In this document: positions 39,868-48,693 of the stretch, one piece after another
How positions within the stretch are numbered: position 1 is the stretch's first letter
Layout of the letters: each line of letters begins with the position of its first letter
Source of the DNA: an uncultured Gemmatimonadales bacterium
Lineage (GTDB): Bacteria; Gemmatimonadota; Gemmatimonadetes; Gemmatimonadales; GWC2-71-9
DNA: 64,000 nt
Assembly (NCBI GenBank): GCA_963821525.1
Contig: CAWGED010000010.1
Location: forward strand, 32,001 to 96,000
Reading direction: 5' to 3'
Position numbers and translations under genes: made by a program
The notes under the pieces: generated by a model
What the model was told of the DNA's origin: nothing
The model's database searches: none
What the model saw: the letters and a program-made list of their open reading frames with translations, nothing else

Positions 39868-40312
39868 ATGTTGGAGCAGCTCGCCCTTATCCGCGCCAGA
39901 GACTGGGGATCCGAGCAGTACTGGCGTGAGCGCATTCAGGGGTACATGAAAGGCACCCTCAACCCGCAGCAGTCTCTGGCCCCGCGCGTCGTCCTCGTCG
40001 CCTCACAGGATAGCCGAATCGTCGGATTTATCGCGGGCCATCTGACCTGGCGCTACGACTGTGACGGGCGAGGTCGAGTGGATCAACGTGATTCCGGAAG
40101 AACGTCGCACCGGAGTAGCCGGCGAGCTACTCCGCCTGCTGGCCTCATGGTTCGTTGGGCAGCAGGCCAAACGGATCTGCGTGGATGTGGATCCGGAGAA
40201 TGCGCCGGCCCGGGCCTTCTACCGAAGGCACGGAGCTCAGGATCTCAATCCGCATTGGCTGGTGTGGCCCGACATCACACTACTGGTGGCCGGGCCGGAA
40301 CCAGCTCAGTAG
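39868..40312 (+). pseudogene. GNAT acetyltransferase, frameshift near 40065
   Basis: VGFIAGHL then EVEWINV..RRTGVA, N..ARAFY in the next frame. Start uncertain. Confidence 0.8.
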
Positions 40313-41478
40313 AGCTGGCTCCAGCTCCTTGAGCCCATTGCCTGAGCCGTGGCGGAGGCGTGCAGCGCGCGGGTGATGGCGCAGCGCGAGAAGGTCACCG
40401 TAGAGTTACCCGAAATGAGACTGCTATTGAGAACCGCGTCCTGGGCCATGAGTCCACCCACGATGTGGCCGCCGGTACCGGTACTGCTCACGCCCCCCTG
40501 GACGATGACTGGCCCGAAGAACTCGAATCCGCCGGCAATATCCAGGTCACCATTCACCAGGAGGATGCCCTGGCCATAGCCGCCGGTGATATGGAGGTTT
40601 CCCGGCGCGTAGATGATCGGGAAGTAGCCGAAGCAGGGACTGGTCGGAGTGACAGGGTCGCCCCAATTGAGGTTATCGGTGGTACGGCAGCTGAGGGGCG
40701 ACGCGTTTAGCGTCGGCCCTATGCCGTTGACCGTGCCCGATACCGTTTTGGTTGCCATGCTCGCCAACTGGGCGAAATTGAGATCGCCGAACTGGTTGAA
40801 GCTCCCGCTGGTGATCGTCGGGTCAGTCAGAACCGCCGGGCTACCCGTGATGCAAGACGCACCGCTGCAGGCCCCGAAGGTGGTCACGTTGCCGCTGGAG
40901 TCCCGGACGCCCGCCGCGGTGGCGCCAGGGGGCGGGCAGAGGCCGCCGGTCCAGTTGGGCGGCACCGAATCGTTGCCGCTTATCTCAGTCGATCCGCCGA
41001 TGTTGATGCCGACGCGGGTGGTGACCGCCGCGTTCATGTCAATCAGGGGGATGCTCAGTTTCAGCAGCTTGCCCAATTGCTGCCTGCTGATTACGGCCCC
41101 GGTCCGACTCAGGTGCCGGCCCTCGGAGCGCACCATGTAGGCGGCCTGGTTGATCCGGAGGACGTATGGGGTATAGGTGTTGGTGCCCCCAACCGTCACC
41201 GTGGGAAGGGTGATCTCGGAGCCGTTGGCCATGGTGTTGTACGTGCCCCCGTTCCACGCCGTCACCGTGGCGGCGAGCCCGGCTTCCGCCGCCTCGGACG
41301 CCTGGGCTCGGGCCATGAAATTGTCGCCAGTCCGCTGCTCCAACCGCCCCATGTAGAAGACACCGGCCAGAAGCGCGGCAATAATGACCAGCGCAAAGAG
41401 AGCCAGGGGCAGCGCCATGCCGCGCTGGTCCAATCGAGGCAATCGGGACATCGGGACACTCCGGAAAGGAGAGGTCAT
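40306..41478 (-). CDS. PilX-like minor pilin
   Basis: RG|MALPLAL N-terminus without Glu5, EAAEAGL, GQGILLVNGDL. Confidence 0.8.
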   Translation of the reverse strand: MTSPFRSVPMSRLPRLDQRGMALPLALFALVIIAALLAGVFYMGRLEQRTGDNFMARAQASEAAEAGLAATVTAWNGGTYNTMANGSEITLPTVTVGGTNTYTPYVLRINQAAYMVRSEGRHLSRTGAVISRQQLGKLLKLSIPLIDMNAAVTTRVGINIGGSTEISGNDSVPPNWTGGLCPPPGATAAGVRDSSGNVTTFGACSGASCITGSPAVLTDPTITSGSFNQFGDLNFAQLASMATKTVSGTVNGIGPTLNASPLSCRTTDNLNWGDPVTPTSPCFGYFPIIYAPGNLHITGGYGQGILLVNGDLDIAGGFEFFGPVIVQGGVSSTGTGGHIVGGLMAQDAVLNSSLISGNSTVTFSRCAITRALHASATAQAMGSRSWSQLY

Positions 41479-42308
41479 GGCAGGGGAGAGTTACGGAGCG
41501 TGACCCACCGCACCAGGGTGTCCTGCACCGGCTGGACGGTGGCCGACGTCCCGCCGGCCCGCACTGCGCGATCGCTCTGGCCGCGCAGCGTGATGCTGAT
41601 GCTGCGGACCCGCGCCAGGGTACCGGTGACGTTCCCCAAGGAGTCGTAATAGGCGATCGAAAGACCGCCGGTCTGCAGCGGCCCGGCAACCGCCTGGAGC
41701 GCCTGGCCCGCGCTCACCGAGCGGGCGCCCAGATAGTCAACCCCACTCTGGGTCACCGGAGCAATCTCCATGGTTTCGAAGGTCCGTACCGGCGCCTCGA
41801 CCAGGACGTCCGCGTTGGACGCGCTGTCCAGCGACGTGCCCAGGGTGATGGCCCCCACCCCCCCGCCGCAGCTCCCGCCCGTCACCGAGGTGATCGGGAA
41901 TTCCCGCCACCGGTCGTCGCTCGAGATGTCCGGATCCTTCTCGACGAAGAGCAGCAGGTTGTCCTGGCCTGCCACCGGGAGCCGGGTGCCGTACAGCCGA
42001 TCGGTCCGGATCTTCACTTGCGAGCTGGTGACCGAGCAGGCAAAGCCCAGCGTGCGCATGGCCCGGTACGTCACCGACGAGGCGTTGGCAGTCACCAGAT
42101 CCACCGAGTCGACGTCGCTTCCCATCTCCTGCAGCTCGCTGGCCAGCACCTGAGTGCCGACCCGCACGTTGGACTGGAGCATCGCCTGCTCCACCTGGGT
42201 GACGGACAGGCGCTGCTGATTGCTGAGGAGTCGGATGAGCGCCGCTCCCACGATGCCCACGACCACCATCGCCACGAGCATTTCCACCAGTGTGAATCCG
42301 CGCCGCAT
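41475..42308 (-). CDS. PilW-like prepilin
   Basis: G|FTLVE methylation motif, C-terminal VTLRN. Confidence 0.88.
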   Translation of the reverse strand: MRRGFTLVEMLVAMVVVGIVGAALIRLLSNQQRLSVTQVEQAMLQSNVRVGTQVLASELQEMGSDVDSVDLVTANASSVTYRAMRTLGFACSVTSSQVKIRTDRLYGTRLPVAGQDNLLLFVEKDPDISSDDRWREFPITSVTGGSCGGGVGAITLGTSLDSASNADVLVEAPVRTFETMEIAPVTQSGVDYLGARSVSAGQALQAVAGPLQTGGLSIAYYDSLGNVTGTLARVRSISITLRGQSDRAVRAGGTSATVQPVQDTLVRWVTLRNSPLP

Positions 42309-42311
42309 AGG

Positions 42312-42681
42312 TCAGTCGCAGGCTAGAGTGGTGAACAGAGTGTCCGCCGTGGTGCCCCGAGAAGTCGGATAGCGCACCCACACCTGCACGGTCGCGCGTC
42401 AGGCCGGAGCCGGTAACCGTCCAGGTCTCGGTAACATTGCCGGGTCGTGTGGCAGTCCCGCTGGTCAGCGCGGTGCAACGGGGATTGGTCGCGTTGGCCT
42501 GGCGCCGCAGCAGCTCCAGACGCTCACTGGCCACGGCCGCCGCCTTGGTGGAACGCTTGCCTGCGCCCAGCATCCGGAAGACCGCGCCCGAGCCGGAGGC
42601 GAGCGCCAGAATCCCGACGCTCAGCAGGATTACCGCTACAAGGACCTCCACCAACGTGAAGCCGGAGGTGTTTCGCGTCAT
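42312..42681 (-). CDS. PilV-like prepilin (1-bp indel near 42390)
   Basis: G|FTLVEVLVA; corrected C-terminus TVQVWVRY...TTLACD*. Confidence 0.82.
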
Positions 42682-43145
42682 CTGATGACCCTCCCGAATC
42701 CCGTAACCAGCATCGAGTCCTGCTGCCCGCTGCGGGTGAAGTAGACCGTGGTCGGTACCGAGTTGCCCAGGCCGCGGGGATCCACCGCAACTGCATTGCC
42801 GGGAGTCACCGTCACGGTGACGGCATAGAGCTGCCCCAGGTCCTGCACATTCCCGATGGTGTCAGCGGTTCCGACGCCGGGGGACAGTCGCGGCGTGGCC
42901 GTGATGACCGCCTGGTTGCCTGTGAAGGTCAGCGCGGTGAACCGCCCCGTCATGAACGCCGTAGAACGGGCCTGGTAATACAGGGCCACCGCCTGGCCGC
43001 GGGCACTCCGGATATCGCTCTTGACCTTGGCCCGGTTCAGGCTGGGAAACCCGATGCCGACGATGATCCCAATGATCACGACGACCACGAGGATCTCGAT
43101 CAGGGTGAAACCCGCGCGCTCGGGACCCAAGGTGGGTCTGGTCAT
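42678..43145 (-). CDS. FimT/GspH-like prepilin
   Basis: G|FTLIEILVV, DPRG, GFGRV. Confidence 0.88.
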   Translation of the reverse strand: MTRPTLGPERAGFTLIEILVVVVIIGIIVGIGFPSLNRAKVKSDIRSARGQAVALYYQARSTAFMTGRFTALTFTGNQAVITATPRLSPGVGTADTIGNVQDLGQLYAVTVTVTPGNAVAVDPRGLGNSVPTTVYFTRSGQQDSMLVTGFGRVIR

Positions 43146-44533: not shown

Positions 44534-44611
44534 GACAGAGGGGGCGGTGGCGTGAAGACCTCTTCACGCCCGCATCATTCCCTTCCTTGTCAGGTGGCGT
44601 ATTCTCAGTTG

Positions 44612-46141
44612 ATGCTCCCCCACCCCCCGTTTGCGAGCCAGCTCTCCCTGGAGGAGGAGCTGGCAGAGTTCGAGCGCCTCAAGCCCCGGCTGGCTCGGGT
44701 CTGGCCGATCATTGCCTGGGAGCGGGACGACCCCTGTACCACGGTGGTCGTCCCTTCCCTCACACTACCTCAGGGGGAGCTGGCCAAGCTCAGCGGGGCA
44801 AGCTACTACGAAGAGCGATTGTTGTTCCTTCTGATCCGTCTCCGCAACCCGCGCGCGCGGGTTGTGTACGTGACCTCGCAGCCGGTCCATCCCCAGATCC
44901 TCGACTACCTCCTGCAACATCTGCTCGGCATCCCGGCCAGTCATGCTCGCCAACGACTCACCATGCTCTCGGCGGCGGACGGCTCACCGAGGCCGCTCAC
45001 CCTGAAGATCCTCGAACGTCCCCGCCTTATTGAGCGGATCCGCCAGGCGATTCCCGACCGCGATTCCGCCTACCTCAGCGCGTTCAACGTGACACCCCTG
45101 GAACGGCGCCTCTCGGTCCTGCTCGGCATCCCGATCAACGGTGTGGACCCCGCGCTCGCGCACCTGGGGACCAAGTCGGGGAGTCGGAAGCTTTTTCGAG
45201 AGAGCGGTGTATCGCACCCTGCCGGGTTCGAGGATCTGAAGAGTGAGAAGGACGTTGTCGGGGCACTCTCCACCCTCCGAGACGAGCGGCCTGGAATCCG
45301 GCGGGCGGTGATCAAGCTCGACGACAGCTTCTCAGGGGCAGGAAATGCGCTCTACGACTACCCCGAGGAGAGTACCTCGCAGGCGCTGGCGCGCGCCCTC
45401 GACGGCCTCAAGTTCACTGACGCCTCGGAGACCCGCGAATCATACTTCGCAGAATTCGCTGTCGGCGGCGGGATTGTCGAGGAGTACGTCGATGGAGTCG
45501 AAACCCGCTCGCCCAGCGTGCAGCTCCGCACGGCGCCCTCCGGACAGGTCCTGCTGCTCTCGACCCATGAACAGATACTCGGGGGGCCCACCGGCCAGGT
45601 GTATGAAGGCTGCCGCTTTCCGGCAGACTCGGCGTACCGCCTCGCGATTCAGGAGGCGGGGCAGCGGGTCGGAGGCGCGCTGGCCGACCACGGAGTCGTG
45701 AGCCGCTTCGGGGTGGACTTCATGGTGACCCGCCCAAGACCCGACGCAGCCTGGGAATATCGGGCAATTGAAATAAACCTGCGCCTGGGCGGTACCACTC
45801 ATCCCTTCCTGGCGCTCCGATTCTTATGCGGAGGCGGCCTCGACCCTGTGAGCGGTCTTTTCCATTCCGCCTCCGGACATGGTAAGTACTACCGCGCCAC
45901 CGATAATCTTTGGAGTCCCCGCTACCGGGGGCTCCTCCCCGAAGACGTGATCGAGATCTTCACAATAAACCGGCTGACATTCGACTACCGGACGGAAACC
46001 GGTGTCCTGTTTCATATGATCGGCGCGGTATCCGAATTCGGGAAGCTTGGCCTCACCGCGATCGGTAACAGCCCTGAAGAGGCCGACATGCTTTTTGAGG
46101 ACACTCTGGATGCGCTGGAGGAGGAAACAGCCTACGGCTGA
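44612..46141 (+). CDS. PGM1-related ATP-grasp peptide ligase (preATP-grasp, ATP-grasp, PGM1_C)
   Basis: VVVPSL, YEERLLF, GTKSGSR, FSGAGN, SPSVQ, EINLRLGGTTHP. Confidence 0.85.
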   Translation: MLPHPPFASQLSLEEELAEFERLKPRLARVWPIIAWERDDPCTTVVVPSLTLPQGELAKLSGASYYEERLLFLLIRLRNPRARVVYVTSQPVHPQILDYLLQHLLGIPASHARQRLTMLSAADGSPRPLTLKILERPRLIERIRQAIPDRDSAYLSAFNVTPLERRLSVLLGIPINGVDPALAHLGTKSGSRKLFRESGVSHPAGFEDLKSEKDVVGALSTLRDERPGIRRAVIKLDDSFSGAGNALYDYPEESTSQALARALDGLKFTDASETRESYFAEFAVGGGIVEEYVDGVETRSPSVQLRTAPSGQVLLLSTHEQILGGPTGQVYEGCRFPADSAYRLAIQEAGQRVGGALADHGVVSRFGVDFMVTRPRPDAAWEYRAIEINLRLGGTTHPFLALRFLCGGGLDPVSGLFHSASGHGKYYRATDNLWSPRYRGLLPEDVIEIFTINRLTFDYRTETGVLFHMIGAVSEFGKLGLTAIGNSPEEADMLFEDTLDALEEETAYG

Positions 46142-46378
46142 CCCGGACGCCCGCTGGCCTCATCGCTCCGCCCTCACACGTCGGTCGCGAGGTACGGCCG
46201 GGAACCACCGGGACATCTGGGCCGCGAGACATTAGAATGATCGCGATTGACGAAGACCGATCGGCCTTGCGCTTTCGGCAGGCCGAGTTCATCAAGCAAT
46301 TGAGCCGGGGCGCGGAACACGCGATTTCGAAGGCGGGAAAGCCAAGGCGGGCAAGAAGCGGCGTTGACGTCAGACTCG

Positions 46379-46519: not shown

Positions 46520-46698
46520 TTTCCGGATGGGGCAACCAAGCTGGGAGGGGTGTTGTGGCTGGCCGTCGCCTTTGCACTCTACCTGACGGCTCAGATATCG
46601 ACGATGGCGTACTTCGTCTTGAAGGCGCGCGCAACACGATGGATCCGGGGTGTGCCGTCCTGGTACCGCGCATTCCATAACAGGCACTTCGGAGCACC

Positions 46699-47058
46699 CT
46701 GGCTATCACCCAGATCCCCAACATCGGCCCCCAAGGCCAACGGCGTCGGATGACCTCCGGGGCAGTCGCCCTCGGGATTGTCGTTGCGGCAGCCGTCGTC
46801 CTATTCGTGGTGGGAGCGCCGAAGGCCTGGCGCCTCGGCCTGTTCCTGCCGATCTGGCTCGGTATGCTGGGGGTGTTCCAGGCGCGCGAGAAGACCTGAG
46901 TGAACCTGGCGGCGCGCGGTCTGCGCGACCTGGATAGTGGATCAGAACCGATCGCCGATCCAGCCGAGCTGGCTCAGGTGCGACGCCAAGCCAGAGTGGT
47001 TCACATGAAGTCTTTCGTTGCGGCGGCGTTGCTGACGGCGCTTCTGTTCCTGGTGTAG
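46699..47058 (+). CDS. Putative selenocysteine-containing membrane protein (in-frame TGA 46897-46899)
   Basis: GGAG RBS and CTG start; one frame gives AITQIPNIGPQGQRRR-TM-TM-GVFQAREKT(TGA)VNLAARGLRDLDSGSEPIADPAELAQVRRQAR-TM-TAG, 119 codons. Confidence 0.7.
46911..46930 (+). promoter_or_regulatory. Bacterial SECIS-like hairpin
   Basis: GG-CGCGC-GGTCT-GCGCG-A-CC begins after an 11-nt spacer following the TGA. Confidence 0.65.
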
Positions 47059-48098: not shown

Positions 48099-48693
48099 AT
48101 GGCTGGGACTGACCCAACAGACCCTTCGAATGGGTACGAGGCCGTTGCGAACGGGTTCATCTCGGGCCGTGTTCGCTCATCCGTCGGCGCTTCGACCGTT
48201 CGTGCATGGGCGAAGACGCTCCCCAAGGGCGCGCACCGTTCTGGATCTCGGCTGCGGGTCCGGCGTGCCGATCTCCCAGGCCATCGTGGATGAAGGCTTG
48301 ACCGTCTCACGGCGTCGATGCCTCACCCAGCATGATCGCGGCGTTCCGGGCGCGGTTCCCCGAGGCAGCTGCCGAGTGCCGGCCGGTCGAGGAGTCCGAG
48401 TTCTTCGGTCGTGCCTTCGATGCGGTGGTTGCGTGGGGACTGATGTTTCTCCTCCCGCCGTCGTGCAGGCAAAGCTCATCGCCAAGGTGTCGAGAGTCCT
48501 CAAGCCTGGGGGAAAGTTTCTTTTCACCTCGCCCCACCAGTTGTGCGAATGGCCGGACAATCTCACCGGCCGGAAATCCCAGTCGCTCGGTTCGGCCGAG
48601 TATCGTCGGCTTCTGGCGGCGAATGGGCTGATCGTACAGAATGAGACCGAGGATGAGGGCAACAACCACTACTATTTCGCGGCCAAACCGTGA
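48099..48693 (+). pseudogene. Class I SAM methyltransferase, about three frameshifts
   Basis: SNGYEAVA, VLDLGCGSG, AWGLMFLL and DEGNNHYY fall in different frames. Confidence 0.8.

Follow-up and report, generated by a model that had tools for sequence, protein, structure and literature searches.

The reading frame and its surroundings

The window, by which we mean the whole 64,000-nt stretch of DNA analysed, belongs to an uncultured Gemmatimonadales bacterium. At 46699-47058 of its forward strand, a single frame runs from a CTG start codon to a TAG at 47056-47058 and encodes 119 residues when an in-frame TGA is translated as selenocysteine (Sec). Direct reading of the sequence confirmed this frame as the preliminary description had given it, from the GGAG and the CTG at 46699 through the TGA at 46897-46899 to the TAG. 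The features are the following (fractions refer to the homologs analysed in the next section):

46691..46694, + strand: likely ribosome-binding site GGAG, 4 nt 5' of the start codon, its function presumed
46699..47058, + strand: gene of a three-helix membrane protein of 119 residues, very probably a selenoprotein (sequence, homologs, and an ATG at the same place in the congener G141)
46720..46728, + strand: conserved N-I-G motif, residues 8-10 (N8 in 140/149, I9 in 130/149, G10 in 127/149)
46747..46812, + strand: membrane helix 1, about residues 17-38 (AlphaFold2 helix 11-38, hydropathy), preceded by an Arg cluster with the conserved R17
46831..46884, + strand: membrane helix 2, about residues 45-62 (AlphaFold2 helix 42-64), moderately hydrophobic and ending in the conserved G-x-x-Q
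46897..46899, + strand: in-frame TGA, taken as Sec67 from the Cys/TGA column in homologs, in the motif Q-x4-T-U-V-x-L-A-x-R-G
46911..46930, + strand: probable bacterial SECIS hairpin with a GGUCU loop at 46918-46922 (folding, family comparison, same loop in the organism's own formate dehydrogenase gene)
46921..46950, + strand: predicted beta-hairpin, residues 75-84 (AlphaFold2); residue 76 (Sec +9) is the alternative site of a second Cys in homologs
46999..47055, + strand: membrane helix 3, about residues 101-119 (AlphaFold2 helix 88-118, hydropathy), made only on readthrough of the TGA

The sequence upstream of the gene, GGAG included, is identical in G141, where the start codon at the equivalent place is ATG instead of CTG. 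The codons had been described as GC-consistent on both sides of the TGA; this stands in that both sides are coding-like, but their third-position GC is not equal (0.83 on the 5' side, 0.69 on the 3' side).

Several other elements were noted in the window. There is a weak sigma-70-like site at 46210-46238. Upstream of the gene, 44552-46141 encodes a 529-residue ATP-grasp protein with IQCH-like and PGM1 C-terminal domains, which is not kept beside the selenoprotein gene in other genomes. On the reverse strand, 40306-43145 holds a cluster of genes with prepilin-type N-terminal methylation sites and a PilX-like gene (named by eye), one of which is apparently frameshifted near 42300. A methyltransferase-like gene at 48099-48693 also seems to be split between frames, which is consistent with assembly indels. 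Rfam had no match in the 64-kb window.

The position of the TGA in the homologs

A profile search retrieved 2,290 cluster representatives at E ≤ 0.001, and the column counts given here are those of the 149 full-length homologs among the best 150 of them. Residue 67, the position of the TGA, is the most conserved column (Cys in 145/149, Gly in 2, Trp in 1, Asp in 1), in agreement with the preliminary description, which had Cys there in similar proteins. The 19 closest database proteins present a different picture at this residue: 11 end at residue 66, 5 have Cys, 2 Trp, and 1 Gly. The rows with Trp or Gly, which are known as protein entries only, may be TGA codons translated under other tables. 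The database stores the TGA forms of the family as fragments of 62-75 residues, unnamed or called 'hypothetical protein'. Gene callers cut the family short at the apparent mid-gene stop codon.

When stops were translated through at the DNA level, matches were obtained in 21 of the 151 genomes from this taxonomic family. Of these, 18 carry TGA at the column and 2 carry TGC, and 1 is a weak non-member. A sample of 301 genomes of the phylum gave 26 matches, of which 21 have TGA, 4 have Cys, and 1 ends before the column. TGA stands at the column in 28 other genomes of the phylum sample, a weak non-member (L041) and a genome whose match ends before the column (G276) having been dropped before the counts. 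We also scanned GTDB genomes with a DNA pattern that requires TGA, and found at least 115 family members among the 120 matches listed; such a scan gives no ratio of Sec to Cys forms. Matches below 50 bits were dropped (5/120 for the TGA pattern, 38/120 for the equivalent Cys pattern). The TGA forms among the matches listed, at least 115, come under 15 NCBI phylum labels: Gemmatimonadota (39), Chloroflexota (19), Acidobacteriota (17), Myxococcota (10), Methylomirabilota (6), Rokuibacteriota (4), Binatota (4), Planctomycetota (3), and eight more under seven labels, with 5 unlabelled. The homologs therefore align across the TGA with either Cys or another TGA, as the preliminary description had proposed to check.

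The stretch 3' of the TGA is homologous to that of the Cys forms and has 52-57 residues in 105 of the 115 listed TGA forms. On a tree built by a fast method from 112 Sec and 71 Cys rows, we counted 21 changes between Sec and Cys, 6 of them forced by well-supported branches. Two members are peculiar. One TGA-form copy (L165) has another TGA in frame, six codons after the first and within the hairpin, and is likely a pseudogene or a sequence error. Another locus (L053, G323:C1:1394567-1394917) represents a divergent subfamily with the motifs C-N-I-G and Q-x4-F-C-V-G-F, which is Cys-only in this single example and may bridge towards DUF2892.

The downstream hairpin

The hairpin GG-CGCGC-GGUCU-GCGCG-A-CC lies at 46911-46930 (-11.7 kcal/mol), after an 11-nt spacer (46900-46910) that follows the TGA, where it had been described. 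Its GGT CTG are codons 7-8 after the TGA, and the same two codons occupy the same positions in E. coli fdhF, as we verified on the gene of MG1655. The fdhF SECIS has a four-base loop and a bulged U. In our gene the loop is GGUCU, five bases closed by a C-G pair, so that 'fdhF-like' holds for position and loop letters but not for the pairing register. The formate dehydrogenase gene of the same organism, an internal control, has a TGA followed by GGT CTG and a GGUCU loop in the same register and at the same offset as in our gene. A scan of the genome for this hairpin register gave five sites: this gene, the formate dehydrogenase gene, and three others. The formate dehydrogenase gene lies at G000:C19:314536 (- strand, L331) in this assembly and encodes the alpha subunit, its TGA falling within T-U-H-A-P.

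Taken in isolation, the hairpin does not exceed in stability dinucleotide-shuffled versions of its GC-rich sequence (z -0.98 over 24 nt, +1.18 over 54 nt), and its significance was therefore drawn from the comparison of family members. We used a simplified version of the SECIS consensus in section 5 of PMC13188914, distinct from bSECISearch, and obtained expected counts by re-drawing codons synonymously. This model is met by 107 of the 115 listed TGA forms, where 26.7 are expected. The control was the same pattern with TGC/TGT, run on metagenomes, which gave 82 members among the 120 matches listed and, after dropping 10 duplicates, 72 rows unique over 48 nt, many of them close kin; 16 of these 72 meet the model (9.3 expected). 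Within one acidobacterial family, it is met by 11/12 Sec and 3/18 Cys forms (30 of 38 fetched loci were scored, the 8 others being Cys forms). Codon usage shows a similar trend. Codon +7 is GGT in 68/115 listed TGA forms, compared with 119/962 (12%) of the Gly codons elsewhere in the same genes, and in 14/72 listed Cys forms. The third base of codon +8 is G in all 115 listed TGA forms, versus 49/71 in the comparison set. The covariation proposed as a check gave a partial answer: compensatory changes exist but are few (one pair is G-C in 47, A-U in 4, and C-G in 1), and the pairs are mostly invariant. These comparisons show selection for the hairpin in the TGA forms only.

The likeness to genes dependent on SelB and a SECIS, of which E. 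coli fdhF is the prototype, includes the in-frame UGA at a Cys column and GGU CUG as codons 7-8. As in the consensus of PMC13188914 (section 5), a hairpin with a G-led loop of 3-9 nt lies 16-37 nt downstream of the UGA. The differences concern the loop, which has five bases closed by C-G in 52 of the 115 listed TGA forms, this gene included, and three bases in 61, the other half of the family.

The gene thus has a UGA at a conserved Cys column and a conserved downstream frame, as bacterial SelB/SECIS-dependent selenoproteins do. Along with the finding that TGA forms are under selection for the hairpin, and with the Sec machinery of the carriers (analysed below, including selA and tRNA-Sec in this assembly), this supports the earlier proposal that the UGA is read as Sec, and makes it very probable that we have here a true selenoprotein gene of a 119-residue membrane protein. 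Sec-tRNA would be delivered by SelB once it binds the hairpin, 11 nt beyond the UGA, and this would allow synthesis of the whole three-helix protein of 119 residues.

Predicted structure and the role of residue 67

AlphaFold2, run on the 150-row alignment, produced a model with pLDDT 97 and pTM 0.87. Its helices span 11-38, 42-64, 68-72, and 88-118; residues 75-84 form a hairpin in which 75-77 are a strand, and residue 9 takes part in a bridge. Kyte-Doolittle hydropathy is around 1.1 for the middle helix and 2.7 and 2.0 for the other two, which gives moderate support to helix 2 and strong support to helices 1 and 3. The three membrane helices of the preliminary description are thus recovered by both methods, the middle one being moderately hydrophobic. 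The positive-inside rule suggests that the basic N-terminus and the 62-105 loop are both cytoplasmic. Residue 67 would then lie just after helix 2, at the cytoplasmic face, flanked by N8, R17, Q61 (present in 139 of the 149 homologs from the best 150 of 2,290), and T66, all of them conserved. The chances that it is a redox-active nucleophile seem to us about evenly balanced. A homodimer prediction on Cys homologs, with a score of 0.00, spoke neither for nor against a dimer.

Many members have a second Cys, at one of two sites: within five residues before the NIG motif (hereafter N-terminal) or nine residues after the Sec/Cys (+9). Among 303 rows, it is N-terminal only in 169, at +9 only in 44, at neither site in 90, and at both in none, compared with around 25 expected at both if the sites were independent. 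A second Cys is present in 160/196 Cys forms versus 53/107 Sec forms; the protein of this gene has none, including before its NIG motif. The Cys at +9 is scattered over the tree (31 changes, 5 forced). Two tests of the second Cys on phylogenetically independent pairs, one with 5 pairs on the exclusivity of the two sites and one with 6 pairs, were not significant. Such a distribution would be expected of a resolving cysteine, provided that the two sites flank the active residue. Under this scenario, the nucleophilic Sec67 would take up an oxidant or sulfane sulfur. The majority of Cys forms and half of the Sec ones have a second Cys, at the N-terminal or the +9 site, that could then resolve residue 67 to a disulfide or a selenosulfide; in forms devoid of it, like the one described here, re-reduction might fall to a small thiol or a partner protein.

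Metal binding is as compatible as redox chemistry with one invariant Sec/Cys and an optional Cys close to it. The protein could accordingly be a membrane sensor or chaperone, still a selenoprotein, in which this residue is a ligand of a soft metal or cofactor (Cu, Hg, or heme, for example) and the optional second Cys a second ligand, and the selenoproteins catalogued in Table 1 of PMC13188914 do include metal-transport and metal-binding families. However, no conserved His, Met, or further Cys completes such a site in the 149 homologs from the best 150, 90 of the 303 rows lack the second Cys, and metal-resistance genes are not recurrent among the neighbours of the 115 Sec and 82 Cys listed loci. 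We find this possibility unlikely, if worth keeping in mind.

The clustering of the neighbours of these loci showed no gene common to more than 6 of the Sec ones, and the larger clusters seem to reflect synteny between close relatives. We thus found, for the 115 Sec and 82 Cys listed loci, no conserved neighbourhood that points to a pathway. Sixteen Cys-form loci (L185, L196, L207, L212, L217, L223, and ten others) have the gene directly 3' of an apparent efflux membrane-fusion gene on the same strand. This neighbour was named by eye from its translation and is found in 0/115 listed Sec loci. A weak search for fused forms gave none among 8,000 scored candidates, the viral contigs contained no relative, and the plasmids had no match.

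Relation to DUF2892 and other known families

PF11127 (DUF2892) is the commonest weak Pfam match of the family: 22 of 150 members match it at E ≤ 0.5, with a best value of 5.8e-4. This does not reach the gathering threshold, and canonical DUF2892 members in related genomes score between 1e-15 and 1e-22 when the genomes are searched. The two families have in common an N-x-G...R start, two helices, a Cys followed by a Gly at +7 (in 22/24 DUF2892 rows and in 123/149 homologs of the best 150 of this family), and often a further downstream Cys. They differ in length (approximately 120 residues here, approximately 65 in DUF2892), in the loop, which is longer in ours, and in motif, Q-x4-T-[C/U]-V here standing where DUF2892 has G-x-C-P; a beta-hairpin and a third helix further distinguish ours. 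DUF2892, with the transmembrane domain of YgaP (YgaP-TM), is the best lead to a known family, and any kinship would be weak.

One could go further and regard the selenoprotein as a diverged DUF2892/YgaP-TM domain with a third helix, acting as a membrane persulfide carrier for rhodanese-type sulfur transfer. YgaP is presented in the available text of PMC4730233 as a membrane sulfurtransferase, and one profile-profile comparison gave DUF2892 a probability of 56%, against 0.1% for a reversed control. Yet the probability drops to 37% (local) and 6% (global) under other settings, the default local alignment ends before the Cys, which is aligned only in global and low-threshold runs, and the protein of this gene has no Pfam match itself. 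Moreover, neither a rhodanese neighbour was found at the listed loci nor a rhodanese fusion in the weak search of 8,000 scored candidates. The catalytic domain of YgaP is the rhodanese according to the same text of PMC4730233, and we found no source for a function of the membrane Cys. This more specific proposal is improbable to a degree similar to that of the metal ligand.

Sequence comparison with the PDB gave nothing better than E 0.15, Foldseek gave 0 matches at E ≤ 0.001, and the best Z of VIA-align was 7.2, a value generic for helical bundles, with none at 8 or above. YgaP-TM was not among the listed rows of either fold search. With a Cys homolog as query, only unnamed clusters were among the matches in the ESM Atlas. 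The fold searches show neither a known nor a new fold. NCBIfam had nothing near its cut-offs for 20 and 127 members, and Pfam no fitting family.

The selenocysteine machinery

The preliminary description had proposed to look for selA, selB, selC, and selD in the genome. The outcome is mixed: selA and tRNA-Sec are intact, selB is spread over three frames (G000:C5:974674-976756, L004), and selD was found neither by HMM nor by tblastn in the assembly, which is 81% complete. Added to the CTG that replaces ATG as start codon, this could mean that the family is a selenoprotein family in which Sec decoding is dead in this strain, where selB would be broken and selD lost, and the gene would give only a fragment of 66 residues. 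However, the one EF-Tu that we found here is broken as well, its two parts (172 and 302 residues, G000:C5:507500-508900) lying in different frames, which indicates indel errors in essential genes of this assembly. The congener G141 has an intact selB, 94% identical, relative to which there are seven single-base gaps. Contigs of short reads from 4/4 public runs differ by single-base indels at or beside the sites of the selB gaps where they cover them; they represent related strains, mostly 90-95% alike, and not the strain of the assembly. Furthermore, selD is present in 3/3 congeners and its flanks are also missing here, and the TGA and hairpin of FdhA are intact, as are selA and tRNA-Sec. The frameshifts in selB and the missing selD are thus probably assembly faults, and dead decoding in this strain is very unlikely. 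Among the relatives, we observed one SelD with an in-frame TGA (L336, G047:C17:261399-262331), and none in the four others tested.

We then considered the machinery of the carriers at large. Within the phylum, selB is over the cut-off in 27/28 TGA carriers and 2/4 Cys carriers. Outside the phylum, where genomes were picked from named loci, it is found in 48/49 carriers (49/50 before removal of the non-member L105). In the acidobacterial family, selB is present in 25/27 Sec and 23/26 Cys carriers, counts that leave out the unpublished G458 and G477 and in which 15 of the 27 Sec calls rest on two stops in the match rather than on fetched DNA. In this lineage selB is nearly universal, which makes the comparison of Cys forms with loss of selB uninformative. 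Among the genomes of the taxonomic family of this bacterium, 132/151 have selA (a tally that includes the unpublished G014). Since selA and selB are common in these lineages, their co-occurrence with the gene discriminates poorly within them, and is consistent with the selenoprotein claim without being strong evidence for it. For comparison, the available description of BSepDB (PMC13326102) reports entries from 16,621 species with the Sec pathway, out of 64,762 genomes; the lineages studied here are richer in the pathway than those genomes at large.

Finally, that the TGA is a real stop (in a pseudogene or split gene), a sequencing error, or a codon for Trp or Gly in an alternative code, as W or G in 3/19 of the closest and 3/149 (best 150) of the database homologs might suggest, is extremely improbable given that the same TGA is found in more than 100 genomes of many phyla with a conserved downstream frame, that the column has Cys, not Trp or Gly, in 145/149, that Sec and Cys forms interleave on the tree, and that an ordinary TGA stop ends many of the listed TGA-form genes, which excludes genome-wide recoding.

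A widespread family of membrane selenoproteins

Table 1 of PMC13188914 (2026), in which the families of Haft and Tolstoy 2025 are included, lists 119 prokaryotic selenoprotein families, mostly thioredoxin-like or metalloenzymes. None of these 119 entries matches the family when their listed names, domains, and motifs are compared with it. The family lacks both a CxxU/UxxC motif and a thioredoxin fold. The table also has Sec-bearing integral membrane proteins, namely the YeeE/YedE thiosulfate transporter family, the putative mercuric transport protein, and the SaoP permease. These are different families with different motifs, and none of their models matched above the cut-off. There is no mention of YgaP, DUF2892, or Gemmatimonadota in the available texts of deep-Sep (PMC12013277) and of Haft and Gwadz (bioRxiv 10.1101/2022.07.06.499078), and BSepDB, from what is accessible of PMC13326102, searched previously reported families only. 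Our literature search, beyond whose reach lay Table S2 of BSepDB and Deng et al. 2026, returned no report of this family. A full-text search pairing selenoprotein with YgaP returned no paper. Deng et al. 2026 is said to mention unvalidated candidates, and could contain this family. In summary, the family is widespread and decoded by a known mechanism, and it is probably uncatalogued.

Sec usually marks the catalytic residue of a protein, and its position here thus points to the active site of an unannotated family of more than 2,000 sequence clusters. The finding adds a family found under 15 phylum labels among the matches listed, in largely uncultured lineages, to the approximately 119 catalogued in Table 1 of PMC13188914. 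Its paired Sec and Cys forms are a controlled dataset for the rules of bacterial SECIS elements, with two loop registers and a hairpin that decays in the Cys forms, and through the family one can ask directly whether DUF2892-like membrane domains use their Cys in catalysis.

A broader scenario is conceivable, and as a whole somewhat less likely than not. In this scenario, an unreported and widespread family of integral-membrane selenoproteins lacking a CxxU-type motif would be a diverged DUF2892/YgaP-like branch, in which Sec would serve as a membrane centre for redox or sulfur transfer and the resolving Cys would have moved repeatedly between two positions, often being dispensed with in Sec forms. 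Its members may rank among the more frequent selenoproteins of Gemmatimonadota, Acidobacteriota, Chloroflexota, Methylomirabilota, and Myxococcota, and may, alongside formate dehydrogenase, help explain why these bacteria retain the Sec pathway.
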